Assembly: GCF_024298765.1 (NCBI RefSeq)
Contig: NZ_CP101211.1
DNA: 64,000 bases
Reading direction: 5' to 3' (one strand)
Source of the DNA: Escherichia coli
GTDB taxonomy: Bacteria; Pseudomonadota; Gammaproteobacteria; Enterobacterales; Enterobacteriaceae
How positions within the stretch are numbered: the first letter of the stretch is position 1; each line of letters starts with the position of its first letter. The position numbers were made by a program, and so were the translations under genes. Below, in pieces: positions 4,253 through 52,043 of the stretch. Below the pieces are notes generated by a model that was not told the DNA's origin, did not search any database, and saw nothing but the letters and a program-made list of their open reading frames with translations.

Positions 4253-4531
4253 TCACAACTTATTATTCTTCCCGTCTGCTGTTTTATTAATCCCCCAGTT
4301 AGTAATCACGCCAAGTCGGCGCAATTTTTCACGTTGTTCATAAATAAAAAAATCGCCAAGGCAGTCTTTTAAAACTTCACTATCCTGATATTTTATTTTT
4401 TGAAGCATCCTCGCAACTATGGCGCGTTTCAGGAATATGGCTGCATCAGACTCAAGCATTTGTGAGGACTGTCTGACGGTCTCCTGCATGTCGACGATAC
4501 TGCTGAGCTTTCGTCTGACCACGCTTAGCAT
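4253..4531 (-). CDS. hypothetical protein (92 aa)
   Basis: ORF in operon. Confidence 0.4.
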   Translation of the reverse strand: MLSVVRRKLSSIVDMQETVRQSSQMLESDAAIFLKRAIVARMLQKIKYQDSEVLKDCLGDFFIYEQREKLRRLGVITNWGINKTADGKNNKL

Positions 4532-4715
4532 AGTGTCCGGGAACCGCTTAGCGGCTGAATGTAACCCGCAACAACGTTACGCATTGTTTTACTCACTGCA
4601 ATTTTCCATTTAAGTCTGTTTGTTCCACCAGCTGCTAACATCAGCGTTATTCATCCTGAGGTTTCGCCCGCGATTGACAGATCAGAGGCAGCATGGATGA
4701 AATTGCCAGAGTAGA

Positions 4716-4997
4716 TCACTGCATACGCGAATAGTGGTTTGTATTCAGTTCTGCGTTTGCCTGCTTTTCCAGTGCTGTCATAACCCGGCGGAGCATCGCC
4801 AGAGCCTGAACAGGCGAGCTCCCAAACTGCACTTTCACTTCAGCCGTATCATGATCCTGAATCAGGTCGAGTATATTCACTTCGATCCCTGCCCCGTTTT
4901 CATCTTTTGCCGTGCACTGAATACTTACCCGGGTCACCGAATCCGTCAGGACTGGCAGTGGGTTAGTTTTGTCTACGTTGATAACAGCCTTCTTCAT
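4716..4997 (-). CDS. hypothetical protein (93 aa)
   Basis: ORF immediately downstream of ParB-like gene. Confidence 0.45.
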   Translation of the reverse strand: MKKAVINVDKTNPLPVLTDSVTRVSIQCTAKDENGAGIEVNILDLIQDHDTAEVKVQFGSSPVQALAMLRRVMTALEKQANAELNTNHYSRMQ

Positions 4998-5062
4998 TGC
5001 CCTGTTTCCCCTTGTCCTGAAAAAGTTACCGACCCGTCCGGATGGAGGGGTCGGTCAGAAAA

Positions 5063-6247
5063 TCATGACTGTCCCTTGTTCATCTTATCAGCATGCTTAC
5101 GCAGGTACTCTTTCAGGTCAGCATGAGCGTTGATGATATCGTTCATTTCATCATTGGTCAGAACAAGCGTGTAAGTATCAGTACTGACAGATTCACCTTC
5201 TTTAAGCTTGGCTTCTTCAGCAATACGTTCAAAAATCGGGATCGCGGTGTCTGCAATGACGGTCACAGTCTTTTTGTTCAGAACGCTGGACATGGAAGGT
5301 GCTTTACCTGCCGGGTTCTGTTTAGGAGCGCTGTCCTTTGGAGCTGGAGCCGGTTCCTGTACCGGTGGCGTATCCAGCGTCTCCGTATTGCTTTCATCGT
5401 TCAGTTGATCCGGTACCGGGGTGTTATCGGTAGTATCATCTGCCGGTTGCTCAGCACCGATGTTTTCCGGAGTCTGCGGATCTGCCATGCGCTCTTCTAC
5501 CTTGGCAGCTTTGACGAATTTCAGCGTGTTTTTCGTCGCCTTGCCATAGATGGAGATCGCTTTGTTGATGTTATCTACCGCATCCTCACCGCTGTACATA
5601 TACTCGTCCAGTGCAACGTACATGCTCACCTGATCGCTCACAAGCATGGTCTGTAGTTCAGAAGGCAGGTCCAGTACGCGAACCATCTGGCGAAGATGCT
5701 GCTCTGATTTACCACGTTTTTTTGCCAGTTCCGCAAAGGTCTTAGGCTCTTCTTTATCTTCAACCAGACGCTTAATTGAAAGCGCTTCAGCTACGACAGA
5801 CAGCGCCAGGTTGGAGTTGCCGGTCAGGGTGAAGAGTTCTGCTTTTGAAGCGCTACCGCGAAACTCTTCGCAGCGAATACGAGTAATGCGTTCACGCCCT
5901 TCTGCTTCCAGCTGGCGGTTTGCAATAGCGATGGAACGGATACGGCAAGCCCCCTGACGCAGTACAGGTACGCCATTAACCATCTGAACAACGATAGGCG
6001 TCACGCTGAACGGGTCTTCCATGTAGGCATCGGCCAGGCTGTTCAGGTGTTCCACAACGTGAGGCATTGAATAGTAGAGCTCGCCCATACCGGCCGTGCG
6101 GGTGTTAAAGCCTTCCTGCTCTACAACAACCGAAGGGTCAATGATAAGGCCGTTGCCTTTACGGGCACCGTTACCAGTGCGTTCCAGGTAACCACGAAGG
6201 CTGATTTCGTTGCTGTTGTTTTTTACTTCAGTTTCGATTGCGGACAT
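5063..6247 (-). CDS. ParB-like nuclease domain protein (394 aa)
   Basis: ParB/Srx-type N-terminal box (GVPVLRQGACRIRS, compare paralog VRQGHCRLK at 58095..59258); Pro/Asp-rich acidic linker; two palindrome copies upstream. Confidence 0.75.
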   Translation of the reverse strand: MSAIETEVKNNSNEISLRGYLERTGNGARKGNGLIIDPSVVVEQEGFNTRTAGMGELYYSMPHVVEHLNSLADAYMEDPFSVTPIVVQMVNGVPVLRQGACRIRSIAIANRQLEAEGRERITRIRCEEFRGSASKAELFTLTGNSNLALSVVAEALSIKRLVEDKEEPKTFAELAKKRGKSEQHLRQMVRVLDLPSELQTMLVSDQVSMYVALDEYMYSGEDAVDNINKAISIYGKATKNTLKFVKAAKVEERMADPQTPENIGAEQPADDTTDNTPVPDQLNDESNTETLDTPPVQEPAPAPKDSAPKQNPAGKAPSMSSVLNKKTVTVIADTAIPIFERIAEEAKLKEGESVSTDTYTLVLTNDEMNDIINAHADLKEYLRKHADKMNKGQS

Positions 6248-6315
6248 TTTTGTTCTCTTTTTTGGTTGGTTGTTTAACTGCGCTACAACACAACAATACC
6301 AGGTTCGACATTTTT

Positions 6316-6326
6316 CCTAATAGGTT
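6316..6326 (-). promoter_or_regulatory. CCTATTAGG element adjacent to palindrome, candidate -35 region for ParB-like gene
   Basis: variant of the GGTTATTAGCC element; 16 bp upstream of a TATTGT -10-like hexamer on the minus strand. Confidence 0.35.
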
Positions 6327-6335
6327 GCGGAGAAG

Positions 6336-6350
6336 AAAAAGTAACTTTTT
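6336..6350. promoter_or_regulatory. AAAAAGTAACTTTTT palindrome copy
   Basis: exact palindrome ~90 bp upstream of ParB-like start. Confidence 0.5.
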
Positions 6351-6462
6351 TTAAAAATTTTCCTGAGGCAATACTACTCGATCCGTCCGTTTTAAATCTT
6401 CACAACAGTGGGCCGTTTTTACGTTTAAGCAAAATAACTGGTTCAGAAGGTGACTCAGAGAG

Positions 6463-6475
6463 AAAAGTTACTTTT
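6463..6475. promoter_or_regulatory. AAAAGTTACTTTT palindrome copy
   Basis: second copy ~215 bp upstream of ParB-like start, with the extended form ...AGAAAAGTTACTTTTCCGG. Confidence 0.5.
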
Positions 6476-6662
6476 CCGGTTGTCTGGGCCAGTGATGGGA
6501 GAGTGGCAGGACAGGAATGGCTAAACCGGTGCGGGTCTCTTGTAAGTCGCAGGGGATTCAGGAGATATAGAGGTAAACTGGTACGTTCAGTTTTTGGATT
6601 GAGCCGGGCTTTTGGCCCGGGCTTAAGGAAGCAGAAATTTGAACGAACTGGCAGGTAATGCT

Positions 6663-6839
6663 TTATGCCGCCGACAGCTGGCCGTCAGTGCTTTGCTGTT
6701 CTGGTTTGACAGTTGGGGGATAACCGGCAGTTAGCCGCTGGCATTCCGCATCACAGAAAGCCCTGAGGTTGCTGAAGACGGACTCCATGAAATCAGCATG
6801 AGCATACGAGTCTACAGGACGTGTCTTGTTATCTTTCAT
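6663..6839 (-). CDS. hypothetical small protein
   Basis: ORF (MKDNKTRPVDSYAHADF...); weak support. Confidence 0.3.
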   Translation of the reverse strand: MKDNKTRPVDSYAHADFMESVFSNLRAFCDAECQRLTAGYPPTVKPEQQSTDGQLSAA

Positions 6840-7348
6840 CTTGTTCTCCTCAATCATTATTAAAACCAGCGGATTTAGTTTCTGGCGCTCCATCTGCTGA
6901 CCGGCTTTCCCAGAGAGCAGCGATGTGTCGGGTTCTTTTTCTCATTTTATCGTTTTCATCGGGCCCATCCGGGCGTATAAGAGACCGATTTGGCATGTTT
7001 AGGAAACGTACTGGCGTAATTAAAAGCTGAGGTTGGATTTGGAATAAAAGGATGCTTTTCCCGTTTGTCGGGTCTTTCGCCACCGCTGCACGATGATTCT
7101 GTCAGGCATTCTGCGCCCTCCCAGGCTGCACATCTGGAAACAAGCGTTGGGATGTTCCCTTCCCCTGCTCACCGTAGAAAGATCGGCAAGTCCCGACGGT
7201 CGTTCCGTACGAGCCGGGTCCAAATAATGAATAAATAAAACGCCGCTTCAATTGTATTGACAATAGAAGTCAGGAGGATCATAGTGTCATTCATGGTGCG
7301 GCTTTCGCACCACCGCCCCGGCGGTACCGGGCAGAACTGGAGTACCTC

Positions 7349-8293
7349 ATGAAACTTTCCCGTCAGACGACTTCTGATACTTCTGTTGATGGCCGTTCAC
7401 GCGCATATGCCTGGGGCCGTGTCCATTATTTCATTATCGAACATGCACCAATGGCTGAGCTGGTCGCTATTGACGAGCTGCTGGAAAAAGCTGGCTGGAG
7501 CAATGACGGCTGTCCGAACTATGAGAAAGATGACGAGTTTGGTAATGCTGGTTACAGCTGTGGTTACTGGATCGATATTGACAGCGTGGGAAGCTTCAAG
7601 GCTGACTACAAACGTCTTAAGGGGGAGATTAGTGCGCATATCGCCTCAAAGGCGGCAGAGGTGGAGATCCGCGTACTGGACTCGATGTCCGACAAAGAAT
7701 GTAAAGATGTTGCCTCGGTGGCATCTACTGTTCGCCGTGACTTACGTACGCAGTCCGAATCGCTTCATTCACTGCGTACAATCGTAACGGTTGATCATTA
7801 CAATCCCTATGTGACCACCAGCCGCCCGCTGAGCATTTCCGCCTGGACACTTATCCACGACTGTCTGAAAACAGGCACCATCAATGACGTCTGTTCACGG
7901 TTGAGTTCATTAATCCTGCACTCTGAAGCCGCGATTGCCCGTTGTAAGGGAAGCTCCGACTACTCTTCGGAACACGCTCAGCTATCGTTTTTTGCTGGTA
8001 ACGACTATGTCACCAGACGCACCCTTGTTGATGCAGCTCACGAAGAGGCTCTGCGAATGAACCGCCGCTTTGATGAACGCATTGCAATGAACGCGGATTC
8101 TGATGCCAGAAGGCTCCAGTGCGAATTCAACCTTAGCAACCATGTCGTACAGCGTAGGACCGTTGAATCTGCTCATATCCAGGCACTCAATGAAGACGTC
8201 ACCCGTTCACAGGCGGAACCACGCTGCCCTGGAAAGCTTCTTCTGAATATGACCAGTCATGAGGAAGTGCGGGACTCACTGAGCGCCTGTTAG
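7349..8293 (+). CDS. hypothetical protein (314 aa)
   Basis: first gene of a plus-strand four-gene block; TTGACA-like hexamer upstream. Confidence 0.5.
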   Translation: MKLSRQTTSDTSVDGRSRAYAWGRVHYFIIEHAPMAELVAIDELLEKAGWSNDGCPNYEKDDEFGNAGYSCGYWIDIDSVGSFKADYKRLKGEISAHIASKAAEVEIRVLDSMSDKECKDVASVASTVRRDLRTQSESLHSLRTIVTVDHYNPYVTTSRPLSISAWTLIHDCLKTGTINDVCSRLSSLILHSEAAIARCKGSSDYSSEHAQLSFFAGNDYVTRRTLVDAAHEEALRMNRRFDERIAMNADSDARRLQCEFNLSNHVVQRRTVESAHIQALNEDVTRSQAEPRCPGKLLLNMTSHEEVRDSLSAC

Positions 8294-8389
8294 TCCAGCG
8301 ACACCCCCTGCGGCTCTACTACCGGGCCGCAGTCTGCTCCTGCCCAGATGGTGCCAGTGGTGTAATGAATTTGTTTAATAAGGCTAAGT

Positions 8390-8992
8390 ATGATGAATAA
8401 AGAACAACTAATCGACAAACTGGAACGCGTGGTATGTGGTCAGTACTCCTACGAAATGCAGGAGCTTGCGTATTCGGCCCTCTGCTGCATTAAAGGCACC
8501 CCGGACGACTGCGCTAAGTTCCCTGTTACGCGTCCGCTGCCTGACACCTTAGTGGACGTATGGGACGAAATCGGGCAATACCTTGGCACAGGCAAAGCCA
8601 TTGAAACTCGCAGTTGCGGCGTTTCGCTTCTGCTTCATGGACACTGCTACGATTCAAATCATGTGCTTTACTGGCGCAATGCTGGCGCACTTCCAGCAGC
8701 TTGCGATACGCCACTGGCTGGTGGGTCTCGCAAACTGTTCACCTGCTCAGCCTGTGGAGTGGACGGTCTGGATGAACCACCTGAAACCAGTTGCCACTGC
8801 TGCACAGAGGGGGCCCACTGGGTTGAGAGCAGGCTCTTCACCTCCGGGCAGGCAGACCCTGAAGAATTTAGACCCGTGGCGGTCGTGAAAGAGTGTGCAG
8901 GCTCAACGCCGGATGATCGGCTCATCTGGAGTGTGATTGAACAGCTCAACGGCGAACTGGCGGAAGGCGATAAACTATTTAAGCGACGCTGA
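8390..8992 (+). CDS. Cys-rich hypothetical protein (200 aa)
   Basis: multiple CxxC/CC pairs (CSACG, CHCC); candidate metal-binding protein. Confidence 0.5.
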   Translation: MMNKEQLIDKLERVVCGQYSYEMQELAYSALCCIKGTPDDCAKFPVTRPLPDTLVDVWDEIGQYLGTGKAIETRSCGVSLLLHGHCYDSNHVLYWRNAGALPAACDTPLAGGSRKLFTCSACGVDGLDEPPETSCHCCTEGAHWVESRLFTSGQADPEEFRPVAVVKECAGSTPDDRLIWSVIEQLNGELAEGDKLFKRR

Positions 8993-9045
8993 CAGATCAC
9001 GGCAGCATTTATAACAGACGAACTCCAGAATAATTTAAAGCAACC

Positions 9046-9402
9046 ATGAACATGAAAAAGCCCAAAGCTGCATTACAGAATGCCATGAAAGAAGATGTGC
9101 CAGCTGTGACACAGATTCAGATGCGATCTACGGTTTCCAGAAAGGTTCGCTATGTAAAACAGGCAAATCGAGAGGGTCTGAAATTATCTGAGTGGATGTC
9201 GCGGCATCTCGACGCTGTCTGTGATACCGCAGATGAGATTCATAAAGGCAAACGCTCAACTCCGGTTGCGCCTGGGAAGATTCCCCCAGAGGTATACCAG
9301 GTGATATACGATCAGTGCGGCGGGTTCGTGGAGTGTGATGCTAATGCCCAGGTTATCTGGGAAGCCTGCCGTAATGCCATTCTTAACGGAGACAAAGGGT
9401 AA
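9046..9402 (+). CDS. putative ribbon-helix-helix DNA-binding protein (118 aa)
   Basis: N-terminal strand-helix pattern QMRSTVSRKVRYVKQANREGLKLSEWM; paralog of 35810..36067. Confidence 0.4.
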   Translation: MNMKKPKAALQNAMKEDVPAVTQIQMRSTVSRKVRYVKQANREGLKLSEWMSRHLDAVCDTADEIHKGKRSTPVAPGKIPPEVYQVIYDQCGGFVECDANAQVIWEACRNAILNGDKG

Positions 9403-9432
9403 ACGGCAGGTATCGCCTGTCATTTTACCCTT

Positions 9433-9651
9433 GTGAGGACAATACTGATGAACCATGAGAGCCGAACTGTATACCTGAACACGGCCATTGAGGCCCTGCT
9501 GAAAGCTGAGGCGGCTCTGAACGATCTGGCATTAGCCTATGAGCTTAAACCTGATGAAAAGGCAAGCGCATGCCATCCCAGAACCGGCACACTTTCCACT
9601 GCGTCCCAGGTAAAAAAACTCCGCCGTGTCCTTGAGAAGCAGAAGGTATGA
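9433..9651 (+). CDS. hypothetical protein (72 aa)
   Basis: ORF following 9046..9402. Confidence 0.35.
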   Translation: MRTILMNHESRTVYLNTAIEALLKAEAALNDLALAYELKPDEKASACHPRTGTLSTASQVKKLRRVLEKQKV

Positions 9652-9660
9652 AGGGCTGCA

Positions 9661-9963
9661 TCAGCCAGGCCCGGATATAAATACATGCTCTGCCAGGTGA
9701 GTACCACTGCCCGGTAGCCGAATGATAAGTTTTGATTTCACGGTTGCAATTTCTCCCTCTGGCATCACTGCTCCACGATGCACCCCGATCAGCTTAGCGT
9801 CTGAAAATGAAGATGCACCGGACCTGCATGAAGCGGAACGGTGCCCAGCTGAGTGTTTGTGGGCACAATGAACCGCAATTTCATGATGGGAATGAAAGAT
9901 GGCTGGTGGCCCGCTGATATGAACGCTTACCCTGCATAACGTTACTAACCACAATCTTTTCAC
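9661..9963 (-). CDS. hypothetical protein (100 aa)
   Basis: ORF downstream of hok terminator; weak. Confidence 0.25.
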   Translation of the reverse strand: MKRLWLVTLCRVSVHISGPPAIFHSHHEIAVHCAHKHSAGHRSASCRSGASSFSDAKLIGVHRGAVMPEGEIATVKSKLIIRLPGSGTHLAEHVFISGPG

Positions 9964-9964
9964 T

Positions 9965-10003
9965 AAAAGAAAAAAGGGTTCCTCCGCTTTAGAGGAACCC
10001 TTT
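9965..10003 (-). terminator. intrinsic terminator
   Basis: minus-strand stem AAGGGTTCCTC/GAGGAACCCTT followed by TTTTCTTTT. Confidence 0.55.
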
Positions 10004-10039
10004 CAAAAGGTGCCGATGGCATACTAATCCACACCCTGA

Positions 10040-10063
10040 AAAGAGGGGGGTTGCCCCCCTCTT
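10040..10063 (-). terminator. hairpin at hok 3' end (terminator or fold-back element)
   Basis: stem AGAGGGGGG-ttg-CCCCCCTCT just 3' of the hok stop codon. Confidence 0.45.
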
Positions 10064-10069
10064 TGTCAG

Positions 10070-10228
10070 CTACTTACCGGATTCGTAGGCCAGGATAGCA
10101 AATACCTCCCTTGTTCCGTCTTTCATCCGCAACTCGCAAAGCGAGTTTCGTGTGAGCCAGGTGAATATCAACAGCGTTAAACAAACTATTAATATGCACA
10201 AAACAATGGGTTGGTTCGGCATTTTCAT
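10070..10228 (-). CDS. hok: Hok-family membrane toxin (52 aa)
   Basis: [52 protein letters not shown] closely matches plasmid Hok ([26 protein letters not shown]). Confidence 0.85.
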
Positions 10229-10285
10229 GGCCTTCTTCTCCTTGCATTTAAGCAGGCAAGAGGCTACGCTGTGTGTGACTAGCAT
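10070..10285 (-). CDS. mok: Mok, in-frame N-terminally extended reading frame overlapping hok
   Basis: 71-aa frame with ...KEKKAMK junction as in MokC/Mok. Confidence 0.65.
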
Positions 10286-10326
10286 ACAGGGGCCTCGGGT
10301 TGTACTGACCCCAGAAAGTTGGACAG

Positions 10327-11178
10327 TTAAACACGAGGCATATAGGTCTGATTCCGATATTCAATTGGAGTCAGACCTTTTAATTTCAGGCTAATTCTTC
10401 TGCTGTTGTAGTATTCAATATATTCCGTAACAGCATCCTTCAGCTCGCTTATATTACTGAACTCATCAAGATAAAAACACTCCGACTTTAAGGTTCCAAA
10501 GAAACACTCCACCACAGCATTATCCAGACAATTGCCTTTTCTGGACATGCTTTGTTTAATACCATGTTCTTTAAGGATATTTTGATATCTTCTCATACGA
10601 TACTGCCATCCCTGGTCAGAGTGCAGAACAGGATGCTCGTGAGGATTAAGCTTTTTGAATGCCTGATCGAGCATATTCTCGACCATGTTCATCACTGGTC
10701 TTTCCGAAAGGCTGTAAGAAATAACTTCGTTGTTGAAGAGATCTATTACTGGAGACAAATACAGCTTGCGCCCATTGACTGCAAATTCAGTAACATCGGT
10801 AACCCACTTCTCGTTTGGCCGCGTAGCCTTGAAATCTCTTTGGAGAACATTGGGGGCGGTTTGCCCTACCTCTCCTCTGTAAGAGCGGTATCGCTTGACC
10901 TTAATCGCTGCCTTCAGTGAGAGGATTCCCATCAGGCGCTGAACAGCTTTATGGTTAATCTGTTTCCCTTCTCGATGAAGAGACAGCGTTACCCTACGGT
11001 ATCCGTATCGGCCTCTATTCTCATGATAAATCTCACCAATACGCTTTTTAACGTCCGCATACTTGTCAGGCTTGCTGAGAGCCTTTAGATGGTAATAAAA
11101 CGTACTGCGCGGTATCTCCGCAGCCCTGAGAAGCTCATCAAGAGGATAAAACTGCCTTAGCTCGTTGAGTACTTTCAC
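10327..11178 (-). CDS. insK: IS150 transposase OrfB (InsK)
   Basis: 283-aa IS3-family DDE transposase matching IS150 InsK. Confidence 0.95.
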
Positions 11179-11696
11179 TTTTTCGTGGGATGAGCTAAGG
11201 CTTTCAGCTTTTTTAGATACACAAGCCGCGTTTCAAGAAATCGAACTTGCCTTTCAAGATCCTCAATGCGTCGGTCTTTTGACAGCTCCAATGCTGATGC
11301 CGCTTTTTCTGGATCAACTGATATTGCAATGTTTCTTTTGGTGCCAATCTTGAGCGCGCGTAAACCAGCTTCTCCGCGCTCTTCATAAACCTTCAGCCAC
11401 CTGGCTACAGAACCACTACCAGCAAGCATAAAGTGAGCAGCAGCCTGATTAAGGGACATGTGCTGCTCGATCACCGCTTTCACGACCTTAATACGCAACT
11501 CAGGATCAGCACTAACACCTTTAGGTTTGGGAATTAAACCTTTTTCTCCATGTTTTTCATAGAGGGCAACCCATGTCCTGACCTGGGTTCGGGGGACACC
11601 AAAACGTGCCGAGATGATCCTGTAACCATCATCAGTAGTGAAGTAGTGATTCACGACTTCAAGGCGCTTTTCAAAAGGGTATTTTGGCTTTGACAT
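11175..11696 (-). CDS. insJ: IS150 OrfA (InsJ)
   Basis: 173 aa beginning MSKPKYPFEKRLEVVNHYF, matching IS150 InsJ. Confidence 0.95.
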   Translation of the reverse strand: MSKPKYPFEKRLEVVNHYFTTDDGYRIISARFGVPRTQVRTWVALYEKHGEKGLIPKPKGVSADPELRIKVVKAVIEQHMSLNQAAAHFMLAGSGSVARWLKVYEERGEAGLRALKIGTKRNIAISVDPEKAASALELSKDRRIEDLERQVRFLETRLVYLKKLKALAHPTKK

Positions 11697-11836
11697 ATCA
11701 GGGGCTATTCCATTTCATCGTCCAACAAAATGGGTGCAGTACAGGTTAATTGAAAAATTACTCGGGGCTTTCTGCTTTTACCACAGTCAAACAGTGTTAC
11801 CGCTGGCTGGGGCAAAAGCCTCCAGCACCAGCGTCA

Positions 11837-11863
11837 TTATATCACTCTGCCCTGATCAGCCAA
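11837..11863 (-). promoter_or_regulatory. putative sigma70 promoter (original hok promoter, now separated from hok by IS150)
   Basis: minus strand TTGGCT-N16-TATAAT. Confidence 0.35.
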
Positions 11864-12028
11864 ACACCCTGCCTGCATAAATCATTGATTTATAATTTAT
11901 TTGACATGAGTCACTTCCGGTTGTCGGAGACAGTCTTTTTACACTAAAGAAAAGGGTAACGGGCAGCTGCTTGGTCGGAACATACAGTGCAGTTCCTGCC
12001 CGTTTAATTTCCGGATGCAATGGTAGGA

Positions 12029-12634
12029 TCAGGAGGCACTGGTTCCGTTGATTAGGGAAAGCTTATGTGCCTGAATACGGCTGTATTCGAGATGGGATGG
12101 AATATTACAGATGCGCTCCAGTCGATCATGCAGCCTCGTGTAGGTCAGTCGATGAATACCGGACATTTCATCAAGTAGCCAGCGCTTGATGTAAGGGTTA
12201 CAGGAAAGCCGGGCAAGATCGTCGTCATCCACTTCGTCAAAGAACCAGTACTGCTCCATCGGGACTACCTGAAATATCCACGGCCGGGGATAGTCCCCTG
12301 TGACAACCAAAAACCATGCGAGAAAGCATAGACACAGCTCAACGATCATCAGCATCGAAAATTGCGAATAACTTAGACCAGGCACATAGGGTGAACTATC
12401 CGCAACATACCCCCTGAACAATTCCGCCACAAGGTAGCCCAATAGCGACAAGGCCAGCATCAGGGTCAGGATTAATCCCCCATTAAACGCTACCGAAGCC
12501 TTTTGAACCCGATCAGGTGCTGTCCGGCTGCGATAGTTGGTCACTACTCTTTCTACAAGTGCCCTTATGGCAGCCTGTTCTTTACTGACATCAGCTCCGG
12601 AAAAACCGGACGGGCTTTTATTTAATTCAGTCAT
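12029..12634 (-). CDS. membrane protein (201 aa)
   Basis: two long hydrophobic segments; acidic DDDD motif. Confidence 0.5.
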   Translation of the reverse strand: MTELNKSPSGFSGADVSKEQAAIRALVERVVTNYRSRTAPDRVQKASVAFNGGLILTLMLALSLLGYLVAELFRGYVADSSPYVPGLSYSQFSMLMIVELCLCFLAWFLVVTGDYPRPWIFQVVPMEQYWFFDEVDDDDLARLSCNPYIKRWLLDEMSGIHRLTYTRLHDRLERICNIPSHLEYSRIQAHKLSLINGTSAS

Positions 12635-12849
12635 ACCCCACTCCTGTTATGTGCTCTACTGAACAAACACGTAGATCATACAGAGCTCACGGACGCACTC
12701 CTGCCAGATAAAGGAGGGAATTTGGCTGTAAGACGGTTAGCCAACAGTTCAGGTTATGCGTGGGATCCGGCCAGTCAGAAAGGATTCCGTTATTAACAGG
12801 CAAGGTTAAAGGCAGATGGACGTTGAAATTGTGGATGCTAAAAGGGGTA

Positions 12850-13131
12850 TTACTCTTTTTCCTGCATAGCGGCTTTTTCAGCCCGGGTGGCCAGGCGAGC
12901 ATTTCCGAAAGGTTCACGGACAAGCAGGGGCTTCTCCTTCTTCCAGCCCCTGATAGCCGTTTCTCCAAAACGACGTGGTGCATTGCCGTTCCAGCGAGCA
13001 ATCACATGATTATCATGAATTTCTATAATGACAACGGGGTGGACAATGACCGTTGTAATGGTGGTATTTCCCATTTTGGTACGGGTTACAGACCAAACCT
13101 GCATCCCGGATTCCAGCTGGCTGATTTTCAT
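12850..13131 (-). CDS. hypothetical protein (93 aa)
   Basis: ORF with AAGGA RBS; competing overlapping frames are less protein-like. Confidence 0.35.
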   Translation of the reverse strand: MKISQLESGMQVWSVTRTKMGNTTITTVIVHPVVIIEIHDNHVIARWNGNAPRRFGETAIRGWKKEKPLLVREPFGNARLATRAEKAAMQEKE

Positions 13132-13505
13132 ATTATATCCTTAAGCCAACACGAACTGCGCCACAAAAATTAATGTGGCGCAATTTACCATAAACAATAA
13201 ACATCAGATACCCGTGAAGAGATTTCCCTTTATTTTAAAATTCTTCTGGAGAAAAAATGATATTTCCAGAAGAAGTCAGCGAAATTCAGAAACGGCCATC
13301 ACAATGGTGCTGCGCTGACGCTGGCGTTCTGCCTTGCGCTGCCTGCGGCGATAGATCTATTTTGCGCTGACGTAAGGGCAGTCCTCACGGGTATACCAGC
13401 AGCAGCCGCAAGGTTCGGGCCGGGGTTTTCCGGCAAGTCCAAATGGTTTCATCAAGTCACCTTTTTAATATTTTTAATGGCAAGATACTTCCCTAACACA
13501 TTGTT

Positions 13506-13817
13506 TTATCGCATATAACGCTGTTGCATAAACAGATACAGATAACCCTCAGGAGAAAACATGCAAAGGTTATCAGTGATAACCGCATCCAGATACCGAG
13601 TGTCAGTCTGTAAACGTTTTATCACCAGAAAATGTGCTGCCGCAGCCTTAATGCCAGAACTACCGTTTACAACATTATGTATACCCGCTTCGAATAACGA
13701 ACGAGCATGAATTACCTTTTCCCGGGCCGCTTCGATCTCCGCATTAATAACGCATTGCCGCGCCTGGATGACTGCCTCTCCGGTTAAATCGCGGAAATTC
13801 ATTAGAGATGTGATCAT
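13506..13817 (-). CDS. hypothetical protein (103 aa)
   Basis: ORF in minus-strand operon. Confidence 0.4.
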   Translation of the reverse strand: MITSLMNFRDLTGEAVIQARQCVINAEIEAAREKVIHARSLFEAGIHNVVNGSSGIKAAAAHFLVIKRLQTDTRYLDAVITDNLCMFSPEGYLYLFMQQRYMR

Positions 13818-14039
13818 GATTAACTCTCCAGATTATGTGGAATCATTATAACAACTGGCATCCCGCCACAAATAACCTGAGAAAAATTCTTTGAAATATT
13901 CCTATATATAAGGAATTACAGTCGGAAAAGAAACGATGAAATAGCGCCGACCGCTTAAAATCGATAAATTAAAATGGACGGCACTGGAATGAAAAACTGA
14001 AAGTAGTAAGACCGTAATTATCCTTCACGGATGTAAGCT

Positions 14040-14240
14040 TTATAAGAGGAGTACTGGCAAAGCTTTGCCAAGTACTTCGGCGGTTGTGTCTACGATTTTA
14101 CGGATGTCATCGATCTGCGAAGGCTTATTCAACACCACCGTAAAAAGCTCTCCTTCGTTATCAGCCTGCTCGCAGTTTCCGTATCGGCTCCCGTCGTACA
14201 GCTGCACAATACGTGACATAGAAGACTTTGTTTGTTTCAT
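14040..14240 (-). CDS. small protein, distant member of the PMTLNDLS paralog family
   Basis: weak similarity to 14280..14504. Confidence 0.35.
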   Translation of the reverse strand: MKQTKSSMSRIVQLYDGSRYGNCEQADNEGELFTVVLNKPSQIDDIRKIVDTTAEVLGKALPVLLL

Positions 14241-14279
14241 GGCTTTGCACCTGCTTTTAGGCAGTTTGGTTACTGGTTA

Positions 14280-14504
14280 TCAGAAGCTGGTTTCATGCGC
14301 TTCCGGCTGGGACACGAACTGGTATTTGACGCCGCCAGGCACACCTACTGCTTCGGCAATAGAGTCGCAAAGCCGCGATAAATCATTTAGTGTCATCGGA
14401 TATTCAATATCTACAGAATATAAAGCACCTGCATTTTCAGCATCTTCGATGTTTTTATACTGGGCACTAAATATAGCAATGGTCTGAATTTCGTGGTTAT
14501 GCAT
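14280..14504 (-). CDS. small conserved protein (PMTLNDLS...AVGxPGGxKY family)
   Basis: clear paralog of 20246..20485. Confidence 0.5.
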   Translation of the reverse strand: MHNHEIQTIAIFSAQYKNIEDAENAGALYSVDIEYPMTLNDLSRLCDSIAEAVGVPGGVKYQFVSQPEAHETSF

Positions 14505-14558
14505 GAACCGGTCCTTATTAAATTATAAAAGCCACCCGAGAGTGGCCTGAGTTGAAAC

Positions 14559-14762
14559 TTAAATCTGTGAAGTATTTTTGAGAGATTTTTTGCGATCCAG
14601 ATGCCGGGCAACAATGGTTCCGATAACAAGTAGCATGATGACCGCACTGAAGAAGGTGCTGTCAGGGACGCCCTGGAAAAAATCACTGAAACTGTAAACA
14701 ATAAAAATCAATGCGCAAAAATAGAAAACGATACGAACATAAGGGGTAAAAAACATTTTCAT
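14559..14762 (-). CDS. small membrane protein (67 aa, two TM segments)
   Basis: hydrophobic; first gene after palindrome at 14904. Confidence 0.4.
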   Translation of the reverse strand: MKMFFTPYVRIVFYFCALIFIVYSFSDFFQGVPDSTFFSAVIMLLVIGTIVARHLDRKKSLKNTSQI

Positions 14763-14903
14763 CGGTTGCCTTCCATTCAGGGAGAATTCTCAGTAATTAC
14801 ATCACACCTGAAGAGAAACTATTTTCGTATAAATGAGCATTTTCGACATATCAGAGGGGGGGTTTACTCATAAATGAGGTAGTAAGGGTCACACTTGAGG
14901 TGA

Positions 14904-14914
14904 AAGTTACTTTC
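14904..14914. promoter_or_regulatory. AAAGTTACTTT palindrome copy
   Basis: ...GTGAAAGTTACTTTCCTGG...; ~145 bp upstream of 14559..14762. Confidence 0.5.
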
Positions 14915-14941
14915 CTGGCTGCGAACGAACTATCTCAAATG

Positions 14942-15235
14942 TTAGAGGTGTGCGTTCGCCTTGAGAGCCTCATGCCCTGAGGAGCTCAACTTGAGCCGAT
15001 AGTATAAACCTGGCTCCAGATGGCTTGCTGGCTGGCATAACTCCACGAGGCCGAGCCGGAACAGGACCGGAGAGCTCCTGCACGTCACATCATCAGGATT
15101 CCCCATAAACGTACGCCGTTCTCTGGCCCGTCTGAAATTGCCAGAGATATCATAGACCGTGCCGGATGCCATCCGTCGTAACACGTAAATCTGTGCCATT
15201 GTAAGCTTCTGGGCGGAACTGCTTAAACCTGACAT
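14942..15235 (-). CDS. hypothetical protein (97 aa)
   Basis: ORF. Confidence 0.4.
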   Translation of the reverse strand: MSGLSSSAQKLTMAQIYVLRRMASGTVYDISGNFRRARERRTFMGNPDDVTCRSSPVLFRLGLVELCQPASHLEPGLYYRLKLSSSGHEALKANAHL

Positions 15236-15314
15236 ACCTTCCCCTCCTTATATAAAACAATCCGCCAGCAGCTCGACTGGCGGACAATGTTTGACTGGCA
15301 ACAGCAAGGACATA

Positions 15315-15806
15315 CTATTTAGTGACAAGTTTGATCTTGGTTTCACTCATTCGAAGTCGAAACTCCTGAAAACCCTGCTCTACCGCTAACTCCAGCCACT
15401 CAACGGGAATGGTATAGCTACAATCAGACCCACCCAAAGCGGCATCACAAGCGTAATCCCAGTCCTCATCCAGTTTTGGATTCATCCCCTGGGCGTAAGC
15501 CACAGTATCGCGGGATGCGGGAGAGCCCTCAAGCTCAGCATTAGTGATCAGGTATACACCATGACTGTGCGCGAGAAGCACTTTTGGCACCAGATGTGTG
15601 CTGGCAATTTTTGAGGATGAGGGAAAGAAAACCCTACCAGCTTTACGCGCCTCTTCTTCAGTCTGTCCCTCAGCGTTAAGGAGGGCTCCCCCCGGATAGC
15701 ATGCCGGGTCATAGATCTGATCTGCGGTGACCGAAAACGTTTTTGCGGTGCGAATTTCTTCGATCAGTTTATTAATATCCGCCATTTCAAATACGAGAGT
15801 GGTCAC
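15315..15806 (-). CDS. hypothetical protein (163 aa)
   Basis: ORF. Confidence 0.5.
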   Translation of the reverse strand: MTTLVFEMADINKLIEEIRTAKTFSVTADQIYDPACYPGGALLNAEGQTEEEARKAGRVFFPSSSKIASTHLVPKVLLAHSHGVYLITNAELEGSPASRDTVAYAQGMNPKLDEDWDYACDAALGGSDCSYTIPVEWLELAVEQGFQEFRLRMSETKIKLVTK

Positions 15807-16003
15807 AGGCTTACTCTCCCTCTTCAGTGGACAACATCAGATACTTTGTTGCCAGCAGAAGCTCTCCCACATCCTTGAGGGACAATTCAGCTTTGCCTTC
15901 TACGGCAAGCTGCAAGCGCTGTCGAATTGCATGAACAGAATCTGAAGATAAAGATGCCATTTTGCGCAAAACGGCATTAGCCTTTTCTGGTAATGACTCC
16001 AAC

Positions 16004-16507
16004 TTATTGATAGTGTTTTATGTTCAGATAATGCCCGATGACTTTGTCATGCAGCTCCACCGATTTTGAGAACGACAGCGACTTCCGTCCCAGCCTTGCC
16101 AGATGTTGTCTCAGATTCAGATTATGTCGCTCAATGCGCTGAGTGTAACGCTTGCTGATAACGTGCAGCTTTCCCTTCAGGCGTGATTCATACAGCGGCC
16201 AGCCATCCGTCATCCATACCACGACCTCAAAGGCCGACAGCAGGCTCAGAAGACGCTCCAGTGTGGCCAGAGTGCGTTCACCGAAAACGTGCGCCACAAC
16301 TGTCCTCCGTATCCTGTCATACGCGTAAAACAGCCAGCGCTGACGTGATTTAGCACCGACGTAGCCCCACTGTTCGTCCATTTCAGCGCAGACAATCACA
16401 TCACTGCCCGGTTGTATGCGCGAGGTTACCGACTGCGGCCTGAGTTTTTTAAATGGCGGAAAATCGTGTTGAGGCCAACGCCCATAATGCGGGCTGTTGC
16501 CCGGCAT
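16004..16507 (-). CDS. insB: IS1 InsB
   Basis: matches IS1 InsB. Confidence 0.9.
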
Positions 16508-16701
16508 CCAACGCCATTCATGGCCATATCAATGATTTTCTGGTGCGTACCGGGTTGAGAAGCGGTGTAAGTGAACTGCAGTTGCCATGTTTTACGGCAG
16601 TGAGAGCAGAGATAGCGCTGATGTCCGGCGGTGCTTTTGCCGTTACGCACCACCCCGTCAGTAGCTGAACAGGAGGGACAGCTGATAGAAACAGAAGCCA
16701 C
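16426..16701 (-). CDS. insA: IS1 InsA
   Basis: [30 protein letters not shown]... matches IS1 InsA. Confidence 0.9.
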
Positions 16702-16948
16702 TGGAGCACCTCAAAAACACCATCATACACTAAATCAGTAAGTTGGCAGCATCACCGCCTTTTCTACAGCAGGATACAGAATTTCTGAGTTGGTATTATC
16801 TTCGTCATTATCAAAGATAATTTCAGAATCCATATTGATGTTATCTTCAAGCCAGCTTGAAAGCACTTCAAGTAATGACATCACCTTTTCAATTTGCATA
16901 TCGCCTCCTCTGTTAATGTGAAACAAATATAACAAAGTGGCTTACCCG

Positions 16949-16963
16949 GCTAATAACCTGAGC
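16949..16963 (-). promoter_or_regulatory. GGTTATTAGCC promoter-proximal element with TATATT 16 bp downstream
   Basis: also forms one arm of a long hairpin (TAACCTGAGCAGAAAGTT / AACTTTTCTGCTCAGGTTA). Confidence 0.45.
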
Positions 16964-17414
16964 AGAAAGTTTTCGCACTTTGTTTGAAAACAACTTTTCT
17001 GCTCAGGTTAATGTTAAAGTCGCTGTGTAAAAGATAAAGGGCACTAAAGATGATTTAAGCATCAAACAGACTAAATCGGATTCCGTCTTTTATATCGCTT
17101 TTAAAATAGAATGAATGAAATATAAATTTAGCGTTTATGATTGAACGCTGTAGAGGTTGATTTATCCAGTGATATTCAGTTTGGGGCCTTAAAAAGGTTT
17201 TATTTTGGATTCGAATTACAAAGGGAGCACCGACATTTTTCTGGGGGCTCCCGCAGAGAAAAAGCGGTGAGGCTATGAAGACGAAGAGGAGGTATTCGAC
17301 GAAATACTGTATGGCCACAGGAGAGCTTCAGCACCCATATCCTGCCGTCTCGCTCGCCTGTAATGATTTCAACATGTACAACGTCATACCACGTAGTTGT
17401 ATTTCTCACTTTGT

Positions 17415-43377: not shown

Positions 43378-43421
43378 TGTTGTGGTCAAGTTTTTTTGGA
43401 CACGCCGATCAGATGGTAGGG

Positions 43422-44662
<1,241 letters not shown>

Positions 44663-44680
44663 TTAAATTTGACCACAACA

Positions 44681-46312
44681 CTGACGACGGTAGAGACTCA
44701 ATACCCTAACCCCTGACAACAGAAGTGAGCTTAGAGGTGTTACGCTGCTGTCACCTAATGCTTGGGAATTGCCTGACTCACAACCATTGTCATCCGGAGC
44801 TACTGATTAACGTTGAACCGCTGGACTTTAATGACAGTGGTAGTGATGGATAGGCTCATTTCCATTGTCGTCATTTTATCGGACAAGCCTCTTCGTCCTA
44901 CAGGTTTAAGCTGACAATGGTAGTGATTGGATGATCTCACTACTGTTGTCACTCAGTTCTTTGAGCGGACCCTTCCCTCGGTTGGTCGGCATTAACAACG
45001 GTAGTGACTCGATTGGCTCACTGCCATTGTCATCGTGTAAATGACGTACCTTATCAGCTCAGCTGAAAGCAATGACAACGGTAGTGACTCTAATTGCTCA
45101 CTGCCATTGTCGTCGTGTCTATTGAGAGCCTTATCAGTGCACCTGAAAAGCAATGACAACGGTAGTGACTCTAATTGCTCACTGCCATTGTCGTCGTGTC
45201 TATTGAGAGCCTTATCAGTGCACCTGAAAAGCAATGACAACGGTAGTGATTCTAATGGCTCACTACCGTTGTCACCGTGTGTATTGAGAGGATGGTCCAC
45301 TTAACTGGACGTATATGACAATGGTAGTGACTTTAATAGCTCACTACCATTGTCGGTGTGTGAATTGAGAGGATGAGCAGCTCAGCTGTACGTCCATGAC
45401 AATGGTAATGACTTAATGAGCTCACTACCGTTGTCACCCTGTTAATTAAGAGGCTCATCTGCTCTTCTGGAAGGCTATGACAACGGAAGTGACTTGCTGG
45501 GCTCACTGCCATTGTCGCCGTATGAATTGAGAGGATCATCCGCTCTTCTGGATGGCAATGACAACGGTAATGACTTAATAGGCTCACTACCATTGTCACC
45601 CTGTGAATTGAGAGGATGATCTGCTTAACCAGACGGCCATGACAACGGTAGTGACTTTCTGGGCTCAATACCGTTGTCACCCTGTGAGTTAAGAGGTTGA
45701 CCCGCTCTACTGGACGGCCATGACAACGGTAGTCACTTTCTGGGCTCACTACCGTTGTCACCCTGTGAGTTAAGAGGTTGACCCGCTCTACTGGACGGCC
45801 ATGACAACGGTAGTCACTTTCTGGGCTCACTACCGTTGTCGCCATATAGAATGAGAGGAGCATCAGCTCAACTGAACGGCAATGACTACAGTAATGAGCT
45901 GGATGAAGCATAACCATTGACATCTGGCCCAACCGGAAGCCGTATTCGCCAATCCAATCGAGATTCACAATGGCCGTGACTCGCCGCATTAAGTTCCGGT
46001 GTCCTCCCAAAGCTGAACGCACACTCGGAGGACAATGACAATGCCAGTAAGGTACACATCATTACCATTGTCACTATAGCTACCAGAGAAGCCGGGATTT
46101 GAATGTCGATGGTAGTGAGTGGGTCAACTCACTGCCATTGTCACCCCGTTACGATATTTTCCGTTGGATGTACTGGCCAATGAAGTAAAGCGTAGAAACC
46201 GGGTGTTAACAGGTGACTCAGGAGAAAGCGTTGAATTTCGCAATCTCGATCTACATAGGGTGGTAGAGAACAATGACAACGGTAATGACTTTTGACTCAT
46301 TACCGTTGACGT
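44681..46312. repeat. tandem array of about 20 x 81-bp repeats, each with an inverted pair of iteron-like 15-mers (TGACAACGGTAGTGA / TCACTACCGTTGTCA)
   Basis: exact 81-bp periodicity visible (e.g. 45069, 45150, 45231); adjacent units identical or near-identical. Confidence 0.85.
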
Positions 46313-48581: not shown

Positions 48582-51038
48582 TTATTTTAATTCTTCAATG
48601 TTAATCATGAACTCAGATCTGCCAGTAAGGCCGGATACAGCAGGGAAAATAGGAAAGCTACGGCTGTCCCCGAGCCCCAAATCCAGTTGAAGCTCTTTGC
48701 TTTCACCTGGCATCGCAGAAACGCCATTTACAGTCACGCCGAATGCAGCGTCCTTACGGACAGTAAGCACTGCGTCCTGAAGCCCTGTAGCGATTGAACC
48801 ATCCTTTTTACGCAGCTGGCTGGCATACAGAACAGCCAGAGCAGTATTGTCAGATGTTTTGAGAGAAGCATTGACAGCTAAGGTTTTCAGATTCTCTAGC
48901 CTGACGAGATTGTTTGGAAGGTAGTTAAATTCGACTGAGCTTTCTTTAACGTTGTTCATCTCATCTTTGGCCTGAACTGTGAGAGTGTATGTTTCGCCTT
49001 CATTAAGAGACGGAAAGATCTTGGGATAATTAGGTGCATACAGGTTGTTTCCCAGATTCACCCAAGACAATTCCACCGCATCAGAAACAGGGCCACCGCG
49101 AAGAGTCATACGGCTTAAGGATGGTTTAGTTAGAGCATCGGTGAGCTGTATACGGACGTTCTCCAGCCCATATACTGTTACGTTTTTGCTGATCGGTTTT
49201 CCTTCGTAGCTAATACTTACAGATGGTGCTGTATTATCAACGACAACTGTTTGATAAGGGAGGTTACCGGTATTGTTGAATGTATCTTGGGCATTAATCA
49301 CCACGTTATAACTGCCTTCTGGTACCTCTTTCATGTTGAACTCATACGTGTAGTTCCCAGACGCCATATTTCTACCTGTTTGTTTGCCGGTTACGCTTAT
49401 TTCTGCGTTGTTACGGTTTTTATCTGACAACCAAACTCGATTTACATAAACATGGTCGAAATATGAACCATCTCCAGGTTGATTCACGTAAACCTGGAGA
49501 ATGTTGGTGGTTTCATTGTAATCAAATCCAGTGACGGAGGGACCCAGTGTATGCCAGGCTATATTCTCCCATATAGGGGCAAAGAAGGTTGCTTCGGTGG
49601 TTGACCTTACTTCATAGCCACTATGAAGATAACCGGTAGTGCCATTTATAATATCCTGGGGCAAAGAGACGGTACAGGTTGTTGAGCCAGCTGGAATACT
49701 GCATGTTGCTCCGCCAGTGATTTTTTGATCATATGGCCTGGCCTGTACATTGAATCGGATATTAGTAAGTTTTATAGGCATATCAGATGCCTTGAACAGG
49801 TTCCAGTTTACGCTGTTGAACCATGTTCCATCAGCCTTTTGTCGTTCTATGGGTGAACTTCCCCAAGCCGGACTCTTTACAGAGGCAGGATCCCAGTTGA
49901 GCCAGCTGGCATACTGACCAAGATCTCCTCCAGACCATTGATATGTATTCACAGGTCTATAGTAGTTTCCATCTAAGGCACCCTGTGGCAGCTTAACTTC
50001 CACGTAGACATAGGTGGCATCTTCGGAAAGGACCTGTACTCCGCCATAGTTATTGGTAATGCTCATGCCACCATTTCGATATGGCTTCCAGTTAGTTCTT
50101 GGGATACGTATAACCAACTTGTAGGGGTTTTCCAGCACTGTAAGGCCTCGTTTAAACGGGACGTATCCCGAAGAAATGCCGGGTACAACACTGGTGCTTA
50201 CACGTGAGTCATGAACTGCAAATGGCGTAAATTCTCCCATTTGATCGTCATATAAAAACCGCTGGGGAGGAATGTTAAGCGTATTTCCTGCCAGGTCCGT
50301 AACGATGAAATTGAAGGTGAATTCTTCATCAAGATCACTTGAGGGCATGCCAGCCTGGGTGTTCATATCTTTAATCCACGGATAGAACGCACGTTTATTG
50401 GCTGTGTCATAACTCAGGTTATTGTCGGAGACCACAGAACCATTACTTCGTTTAATGACAAGACGGATCTTGTCAATTCCACTAGCATCCTCAATACCGT
50501 CTGCAAATATAGAAAACTGGCCACTACCGCCTCGGCCCAACTCCCAAAGTGGCCCAGAAAGTACCATGTCGTAACCTGCGTTTTGACTCGGATAAATACT
50601 CTTATAGCGTGGAGGAGTTGTATCAACGATGAAATGATAAGTAGATGTGCTCACTACAGTCTGGCGAATATCCAGAGTTTCATTGACTACAGTAAAGGTC
50701 CCTTCTCCGAGCGCCGGTAGAACCATATCCTTTCCATAGTATTCTGTTCCATCGGCAGCAACGATACGATCTGCAACGCTCGTTTTGGTCGAGACGGAGG
50801 AATACATAACCTTTTTATCGCTGTCTCGTGTGACCGTCACTCGCTCGTACCGATCAAGACCCGATATCAAGTTCAGAGTCAAAACACCAGCGGGATTAAG
50901 ATATGTTTGTGTTGCAGGTTTGATATTCCGAACAGCCTTATTGGTATCTGTAAATGAGTAGCTAAATACCTGAGCATGTGCCGAAGATACAGTAGCAAGG
51001 GCAGTTGCAACCATGCAGCCAATTAGAGTTTTACGCAT
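48582..51038 (-). CDS. secreted Ig-like repeat protein, paralog 3 (818 aa)
   Basis: signal peptide MRKTLIGCMVATALATVSSAHA; D-x-T-P-P domain starts; two palindrome copies upstream. Confidence 0.7.
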   Translation of the reverse strand: MRKTLIGCMVATALATVSSAHAQVFSYSFTDTNKAVRNIKPATQTYLNPAGVLTLNLISGLDRYERVTVTRDSDKKVMYSSVSTKTSVADRIVAADGTEYYGKDMVLPALGEGTFTVVNETLDIRQTVVSTSTYHFIVDTTPPRYKSIYPSQNAGYDMVLSGPLWELGRGGSGQFSIFADGIEDASGIDKIRLVIKRSNGSVVSDNNLSYDTANKRAFYPWIKDMNTQAGMPSSDLDEEFTFNFIVTDLAGNTLNIPPQRFLYDDQMGEFTPFAVHDSRVSTSVVPGISSGYVPFKRGLTVLENPYKLVIRIPRTNWKPYRNGGMSITNNYGGVQVLSEDATYVYVEVKLPQGALDGNYYRPVNTYQWSGGDLGQYASWLNWDPASVKSPAWGSSPIERQKADGTWFNSVNWNLFKASDMPIKLTNIRFNVQARPYDQKITGGATCSIPAGSTTCTVSLPQDIINGTTGYLHSGYEVRSTTEATFFAPIWENIAWHTLGPSVTGFDYNETTNILQVYVNQPGDGSYFDHVYVNRVWLSDKNRNNAEISVTGKQTGRNMASGNYTYEFNMKEVPEGSYNVVINAQDTFNNTGNLPYQTVVVDNTAPSVSISYEGKPISKNVTVYGLENVRIQLTDALTKPSLSRMTLRGGPVSDAVELSWVNLGNNLYAPNYPKIFPSLNEGETYTLTVQAKDEMNNVKESSVEFNYLPNNLVRLENLKTLAVNASLKTSDNTALAVLYASQLRKKDGSIATGLQDAVLTVRKDAAFGVTVNGVSAMPGESKELQLDLGLGDSRSFPIFPAVSGLTGRSEFMINIEELK

Positions 51039-51193
51039 ATGATGCTCCGGGAATAGGTTATAGCCTTATTCTACGGATTCAGCCTACAAGGTCCGGTCGG
51101 ATAAAGTGATAATTTGCCTGTTAAAAGAGACATCAAGTGAGAAAGCAACCAACGTACAGAATGCAAAATGGCGGCAGTGCATCTGGATGACGC

Positions 51194-51207
51194 AAAAGTA
51201 ACTTTTT
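51194..51207. promoter_or_regulatory. AAAAGTAACTTTTT palindrome copy
   Basis: ~155 bp upstream of paralog 3. Confidence 0.5.
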
Positions 51208-51258
51208 GTATCCACTTTTTTGGATTTTAGCCTTCAAAATGAGTATTCAACCAATCAT

Positions 51259-51271
51259 AAAAGTAACTTTT
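51259..51271. promoter_or_regulatory. AAAAGTAACTTTT palindrome copy followed by TGATAG
   Basis: ~220 bp upstream of paralog 3. Confidence 0.5.
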
Positions 51272-51410
51272 GATAGACGCTGCTCCTTTATGTTTGCCAA
51301 TTGTGCTGATATGTTTGTAAATTCAAGGAAGCGAGATTTTAAAAGCATCTGTTGAGTCAAATTTATGTAAAATAACAGGGAAACCATCACTTCTAGGTTG
51401 AGGAAACCCA

Positions 51411-52037
51411 ATGTTATACATGCTCTTATGCTGTTTTCTGATGCTCAACAGTACATTCGTTATGTTCAGAGCAATGTCTGCAATAAGTAAAGGATCCGCT
51501 AAAGAAAACCGGTCTGAAATATCGCTGATAGTCCTAGCAACACTTGGAATCGCATCACCATTCATTGTCGCAATGATTACTATTAATGAAAGTATGACAT
51601 CTAAAACAGTAACAGATTTTTCTTTGGGTGCTCAGTGGTACGGAATGGTTTCAGCGGTAGCGCTAATGGGGTTATATGCTCGACGCGTTTGGAAAGAGAA
51701 GAAGTCCTTATTTACTGGCGCTTTCCTGGCCTCTTCCTTAATGGCCTTTATTTTTACTGACAGCCTTGTTTTCGTATCCCAGAAGGACACCGGCGTTCTG
51801 GCTACTTTCGTACTCGATAAAAACGCTGGAGATATTGATTGTAGTCGCCCGGCTATGATTGTCCATTACAGTAAAGGTGTTCCAACGGACTGGCGTTGCC
51901 CAACCAGTATCATGTTGATGGCGTATTCTTCATATCCTTTTTTACCCTGGCCTGAGTATAGCCATGGTACCAGCCAGTCTCTTACGGTTGTTATTGATAC
52001 ATTTATGGAAAACGCTGTTAATCTCAGCCAAAAATAA
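51411..52037 (+). CDS. integral membrane protein (208 aa)
   Basis: multiple hydrophobic segments; followed by terminator. Confidence 0.5.
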   Translation: MLYMLLCCFLMLNSTFVMFRAMSAISKGSAKENRSEISLIVLATLGIASPFIVAMITINESMTSKTVTDFSLGAQWYGMVSAVALMGLYARRVWKEKKSLFTGAFLASSLMAFIFTDSLVFVSQKDTGVLATFVLDKNAGDIDCSRPAMIVHYSKGVPTDWRCPTSIMLMAYSSYPFLPWPEYSHGTSQSLTVVIDTFMENAVNLSQK

Positions 52038-52043
52038 AAAATA

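Follow-up and report, generated by a model that had tools for sequence, protein, structure and literature searches.

Organization of the locus

The stretch of Escherichia coli DNA described here (64,000 nucleotides of contig NZ_CP101211.1, referred to as the window) carries one copy of the insertion sequence (IS) element IS1, located between two fragments of a small gene of the IncHI2 plasmid backbone that belongs to the DUF957 family; a DUF3085 gene lies immediately downstream. All of these genes are transcribed leftwards. The features of the locus are as follows, with coordinates in the window:

15315–15806, minus strand: downstream DUF3085 gene, 163 aa, GTG start (PF11284, E 6.8e-10)
15811–15988, minus strand: 3' fragment of the split gene, codons 45/46–103 and stop
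15954–15977: near-perfect 24-bp palindrome ATGCCATTTTGCGCAAAACGGCAT within the split gene, 2 bp from the insertion target
15980–15988: target-site duplication copy 1, GCCTTTTCT, adjoining the IS1 right end
15989–16756, minus strand: complete IS1, 768 bp, recognized by its inverted repeats, insA/insB' and identity to E. coli IS1 copies
At 15989, minus strand: IS1 right inverted-repeat end (GGTAATGACTCC...)
16004–16507, minus strand: insB' frame of IS1, DDE transposase domain (DDE_Tnp_IS1, E 1.4e-74)
16426–16701, minus strand: insA of IS1, 91 aa (Zn_ribbon_InsA, E 3e-21; HTH_Tnp_IS1, E 1.7e-30)
16444–16452, minus strand: TTAAAAAAC, −1 frameshift motif of IS1 (IS positions 305–313), read intact
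16735–16899, minus strand: 5' fragment of the split gene, 54-aa product, ATG at 16899
At 16756, minus strand: IS1 left inverted-repeat end (GGTGATGCTGCC..., reverse complement)
16757–16765: target-site duplication copy 2, GCCTTTTCT, adjoining the IS1 left end
16904–16910, minus strand: ribosome-binding site GAGGAGG, 4 nt upstream of the split-gene ATG, read from the sequence

The IS1 element

Members of the IS1 family are about 768 bp long with imperfect inverted repeats of about 23 bp starting GGTRATG, carry insA (zinc ribbon and helix-turn-helix) and insB' (DDE) frames joined by a −1 frameshift at an A6C motif, and duplicate 9 bp, occasionally 8, of their target. The window element has the length, inverted repeats, both frames with the A6C motif, and the 9-bp duplication. 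Its terminal repeats (GGTAATGAC.../GGTGATGCT...) are imperfect, with 18 of the first 23 positions in agreement between the two ends, and the transposase genes are oriented in the same direction as the interrupted gene. The motif TTAAAAAAC has an established role in programmed −1 frameshifting in IS1. The element is 94.7% identical to IS1A of E. coli K-12 (41 substitutions, no gaps) and 100% identical to IS1 copies of several other E. coli genomes; only 164 of the 9,596 matching E. coli records have a copy at 99% identity or above, making this a minority isoform. No second IS1 copy was found within the 64-kb window.

Target-site duplication and the empty site

The direct repeat of GCCTTTTCT that flanks the element is perfect and ends at exactly 9 bp, the tenth base being A at one copy and C at the other. 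The copy at 16757–16765 corresponds to nucleotides 135–143 of the gene, in codons 45–48. Because 9-mer repeats without such anchoring are common locally (17 families in 2.8 kb of the region), it is the register of the repeat against the IS ends, and not the repeat alone, that constitutes the evidence for insertion; the chance of two 9-mers agreeing in that fixed register is about 4e-6. The original prediction of a 768-bp IS1 with 9-bp repeats on both sides is thus borne out by the coordinates and by the register of the IS ends.

Removal in silico of IS1 and one copy of GCCTTTTCT restores a minus-strand open reading frame (ORF) of 312 nt including the stop codon, which encodes a 103-aa protein. 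The protein sequence is exactly as originally reconstructed, although its length is 103 aa and not the ~107 aa given with it, and its description as a small acidic protein agrees with a computed isoelectric point of 4.4; among the N-terminal 48 residues 12 are acidic and two are basic.

We searched for the empty site using an 831-bp query spanning the healed junction. Matching sequence is present in 1005 plasmid records (at 99% identity or above in 583) and in 251 complete E. coli records, in which 251 of the 254 matched places lie on plasmids. Many of the matches, including that to plasmid pAPEC-O1-R, are 100% identical across the full 831 bp. The empty-site plasmids have a single GCCTTTTCT at the matching site, and in their records the ORF is one coding sequence (CDS), WP_001165367.1, annotated as "DUF957 domain-containing protein". 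The uninterrupted allele, which the original prediction had proposed to look for in related replicons, therefore exists as one CDS, often at complete identity.

The surrounding DNA is IncHI2 backbone. The window is 99.75–100% identical to the 180–229 kb region of pAPEC-O1-R, the repHI2-bearing segment included, and is collinear with that plasmid on both sides of IS1 at 99.9% identity; the matching plasmids are typed as IncHI2A/MOBH, such that identity and synteny with typed IncHI2 plasmids extend through the repHI2 region.

Given the perfect 9-bp duplication, the single IS1 in 64 kb, and flanks collinear with pAPEC-O1-R, we interpret the locus as a simple transposition of IS1, as first proposed, into codons 45–48 of a 103-aa IncHI2 backbone gene, a long plasmid-borne form of DUF957, and assign this reading a probability of about 0.96. 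No evidence contradicts the insertion itself. By established IS1 biology, the InsAB' transposase would have been produced through a −1 frameshift at the A6C motif and would have joined the ends of the element to target DNA cut with a 9-bp stagger, and repair would then have duplicated GCCTTTTCT. The palindrome ATGCCATTTTGCGCAAAACGGCAT is flagged as terminator-like on the minus strand, and a bearing on target choice is a possibility only.

Relationship of the split gene to the DUF957 family

On the basis of sequence similarity, the split gene belongs to the enterobacterial DUF957 family, as its long plasmid form. A phmmer search against 1.8 billion representatives returned close relatives over the full length, at 51–73% identity, from a narrow group of enterobacteria only, together with weaker matches that are limited to residues ~8–58 and of which many are in 64–67-aa chromosomal proteins. 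The library-wide E-values for the short relatives P0044 and P0045 are about 4e-6 to 5e-6, and members of the P0045 cluster are named DUF957 by NCBI. Compared directly with short DUF957, the 103-aa protein has 51% identity over 49 aa (pairwise E 2e-16), with eight invariant core residues (W16, L17, D19, N20, F29, D30, S38 and P43), and its similarity to DUF957-named proteins extends across the conserved core. The 103-aa protein has no Pfam match to E 10, but the library likewise misses the proteins that NCBI names as DUF957, and the PF06117 model is apparently absent from it. Neither of two candidates for a DUF957 member in K-12 belongs to the family: YpjJ is a DUF987 protein, and YeeW is a DUF5983 protein.

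The genomic context typical of chromosomal members (after CbtA/DUF5983), which does not formally define the family, is not found around the plasmid form; this instead sits among small hypothetical backbone genes with DUF3085 next to it. The pairing with DUF3085, with a 4-nt gap or overlap, is kept in two homologous loci in different backgrounds (L019 and L022), where the long DUF957 and DUF3085 proteins have identities of 73% and 53%, and 51% and 47%, respectively. A gene upstream of a Marinobacter DUF3085 was considered as a further DUF957 relative and rejected (E 0.021 over 21 aa); because that match is unconvincing, the DUF957–DUF3085 pairing is established for enterobacterial plasmids only.

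Consequences of the split

The start of the split gene agrees with the RefSeq CDS. Its 54-aa product consists of native residues 1–48 followed by an IS1-encoded tail, VMLPTY, and a stop codon, and the 3' fragment has neither a start codon nor a ribosome-binding site of its own. We infer that the plasmid-specific C-terminal half of the protein (residues 49–103) is lost through the insertion. Inactivation of the gene is no more than plausible, because the ORF is broken immediately past the conserved core of DUF957. What the sequence bears out in the original claim of inactivation is a reading frame broken after codon 48; the loss of function is an extrapolation from this, with core residues 8–48 retained.

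The DUF3085 gene, with its GTG start 4 nt past the split-gene stop, is likely an operon partner of the split gene and exposed to IS1 polarity. IS1 insertions are classically strongly polar, as in the gal and lac operons, and given this and the 4-nt spacing, DUF3085 expression is probably reduced.

Several points limit our interpretation of these consequences. The 54-aa product keeps the entire conserved DUF957 core (residues 8–48), and chromosomal members are only 64–67 aa long. DUF3085 might still be expressed by read-through out of IS1 or from a hybrid promoter where the IS ends; a consensus promoter scan finds none there. The 103-aa protein has no significant match in Pfam, NCBIfam, PHROGs or PADLOC, no sequence relative in PDB, where alpha-parvin is the only match and is rejected (E 0.39), and no usable fold match when its AlphaFold2 model is compared with PDB using Foldseek (best E 3.4). 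The model itself has four helices, with a mean confidence score (pLDDT) of 79.9. The NCBIfam blaBEL match (14.9 bits) is spurious, and the matches in PHROGs (E 0.11) and to NsnC in PADLOC (E 0.015) are noise.

In the literature DUF957 is found only in the gene tables of two papers. The original description of the protein as being of unknown function holds in that no function is assignable to it, but it is not entirely anonymous, as it belongs to the DUF957 family.

Recurrent insertions at the locus

IS1, IS26, and an IS5-family element are present at the same 4-bp spot in different plasmids, corresponding to 15976–15988 and 16757–16765 of the window. In L007 (3130–3201) the IS26 junction falls on the identical nucleotide (...gaaaaggc/GGCACTGTTGCAAA), and in L008 (1820–3045) an IS5-family element of 1,196 bp lies at the adjoining CTAA with a 4-bp target duplication. 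Two other IncHI2 plasmids have independent IS1 insertions, with isoforms ~95% identical to that of the window. One of these (L003, 2746–3513; window ~16902–16910) is at the ribosome-binding site, with a target duplication of CGCCTCCTC and the downstream gene intact; the other (L001, 6787–7554; window ~17136–17143) lies within a small hairpin's loop 237 bp upstream of the ATG, its target duplication is 8 bp long (TATGATTG), and here too the gene is intact. In the IncHI2 plasmid pOkiPb01707_1 (L024, 1900–3000) an IS1A occupies the place of the DUF957 gene, which is unannotated there, with DUF3085 just downstream of it and IncQ/RSF1010 repA–repC sequence on its other side; this is an IS1-mediated rearrangement at the same locus. 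Several further truncated alleles of the split gene exist.

These alleles raise the alternative that the insertion is not a plain knock-out, either because the 54-aa product is functional or because disruption of the operon is recurrently selected or targeted, the site being either a hot spot for several IS elements or a switch that turns off a costly gene pair. Retention of core residues 8–48 and the shortness of the chromosomal members (64–67 aa) speak for the first form of this explanation. The second is favored by IS26 at the exact nucleotide and the IS5-family element at the adjacent CTAA, by the other IS1 insertions at the ribosome-binding site and 237 bp upstream, by the further truncated alleles and the IS1A junction in pOkiPb01707_1, and by the palindrome 2 bp from the site. 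Set against hot-spot or selection explanations, tens of thousands of assemblies were sampled, in which some hits to any dispensable 312-bp gene are expected; fragment cluster 10 gathers fragments of similar length by construction, an ascertainment bias; and a less biased search scatters the breakpoints over residues 34–83. On balance we regard a departure from a plain knock-out as unlikely, and a hot spot or selection behind the cluster of insertions, as read from the alleles, as rather improbable.

A more specific proposal builds on DUF3085, for which the strongest enrichment of any Pfam domain in broad-host-range conjugative plasmids has been reported (PMC12826799). Based on that enrichment and on the presence of chromosomal DUF957 genes in antirestriction/RadC modules, the long-DUF957/DUF3085 bicistron could be a plasmid establishment or host-range module, with the site at codons 45–49, beside the palindrome within the gene, a real multi-IS hot spot or a recurrently selected off-switch. 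We consider this combination speculative and quite improbable.

Distribution of the insertion allele and its later history

Neither PLSDB nor the complete RefSeq E. coli genomes contain the exact junction between the flank and IS1. Occurrences in draft assemblies were found by exact look-up of the 54-aa fragment, which is represented in public collections as P0095 (25 contigs recorded, 40 blocks indexed), and the same insertion allele is present in at least 24 public E. coli contigs. One of these, L009, has the whole layout of fragment, IS1, fragment, and DUF3085 with one mismatch in 4,501 bp. Because at least 24 public contigs share the insertion, the IS1 allele is, as far as this distribution indicates, a heritable marker of a plasmid sub-lineage and not a feature of a single isolate. 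The original description of the insertion as recent is consistent with its undiverged flanks, but the allele is not confined to one isolate.

A second contig, L011 (3400–5165), has the left IS1 junction as in the window, but the right IS1 end is joined to window position 4392. An IS1-adjacent deletion of 11.6 kb (window 4393–15988) has thus taken out DUF3085 together with about a dozen small genes of the backbone. The same IS1 copy would later have deleted this adjacent DNA in at least one descendant, and may therefore have remained active after its insertion; the L011 deletion is the only, and indirect, sign of this.

IS1 is able to form cointegrates and adjacent deletions, and we considered whether the element in the window arrived other than by simple transposition, for example at one end of a composite transposon, through resolution of a cointegrate or by recombination between IS1 copies. 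Although the deletion in L011 and the IS1A joined to RSF1010 repA/repC in the same gene of pOkiPb01707_1 would fit such processes, on both sides of the window element the DNA is native and collinear with that of the empty site, there is no second IS1 within 64 kb, and the 9-bp duplication is intact where later recombination between different IS1 copies would break it; a non-simple arrival is very improbable.

An alternative in which each fragment is a small gene in its own right and the 9-mers agree by coincidence, the case that the original prediction named as its refutation, draws on the local frequency of chance 9-mer repeats and has a negligible probability, being excluded by the one uninterrupted CDS in the empty-site plasmids (many of the ~1000 matching plasmids hold the fused CDS at 100% identity with one 9-mer), by 9-mers that abut the IS ends exactly, and by homologues at 51–73% identity that are also single ORFs of 102–103 aa.

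Other features of the window

Relative to pAPEC-O1-R, the window has a 1.44-kb insertion at 10302–11743, next to a hok toxin gene, which is 99.4% identical to a region of pd14-65 annotated as IS150. The segment ~24905–53186, which includes the repHI2 region, is inverted with respect to the same plasmid, with one breakpoint at an IS5-family element, and there are extra unmatched blocks at about 43378–45074 and 50678–52130. A perfect 15-bp inverted repeat (TAACCTGAGCAGAAA/TTTCTGCTCAGGTTA; 16954–17010) with a 27-nt spacer is located ~55–110 bp upstream of the split-gene start, and could be the terminator of the upstream gene or an operator.

Significance

The locus is a textbook simple insertion of IS1 into a dispensable IncHI2 backbone gene; this is a known kind of event, and the disrupted allele is already public. 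For annotation, 16735–16899 and 15811–15988 are one IS1-disrupted pseudogene of an IncHI2 DUF957-family gene, and not genes for two hypothetical proteins. The junction between IS1 and its target is a handy lineage marker for an IncHI2 sub-clade. The long-DUF957/DUF3085 gene pair is evidently dispensable for plasmid maintenance, and because the disrupted operon includes DUF3085, which is statistically tied to broad host range, natural IS knock-outs such as this one could provide ready-made mutants for testing that link.

Comparison with known systems

The window element shares with the K-12 reference IS1A its length of 768 bp, terminal inverted repeats, insA/insB', A6C motif, 9-bp duplication, and Pfam domains, and is unlike it in being an isoform at 94.7% identity. 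The closest counterpart of the interrupted gene is that encoding WP_001165367.1 in pAPEC-O1-R (locus APECO1_RS27635), with 100% DNA identity over 831 bp and the same 312-nt CDS length. Its neighbors are as in the window, with DUF3085 downstream and genes for a 106-aa protein, a 75-aa protein, and DUF6012 upstream; the window copy differs in being broken by IS1 after codon 48.

As in the classical polar IS1 mutations of gal and lac, IS1 appears to lie in the first of two tightly coupled genes, from which a drop in expression of the distal gene would be expected. The chromosomal DUF957 proteins (64–67 aa, in enterobacterial integrated islands) share with the plasmid form the core L..IL..WL.DN....S.IIFDN-ED.T.S..L.P..E.A, and both forms are found on mobile elements. 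At the C-terminal end the chromosomal proteins have a short basic tail and the plasmid form an unrelated, helical half of 55 aa. The chromosomal genes are located at the end of an antirestriction–RadC–DUF987–CbeA–CbtA–DUF5983 module, whereas the plasmid form is paired with DUF3085.
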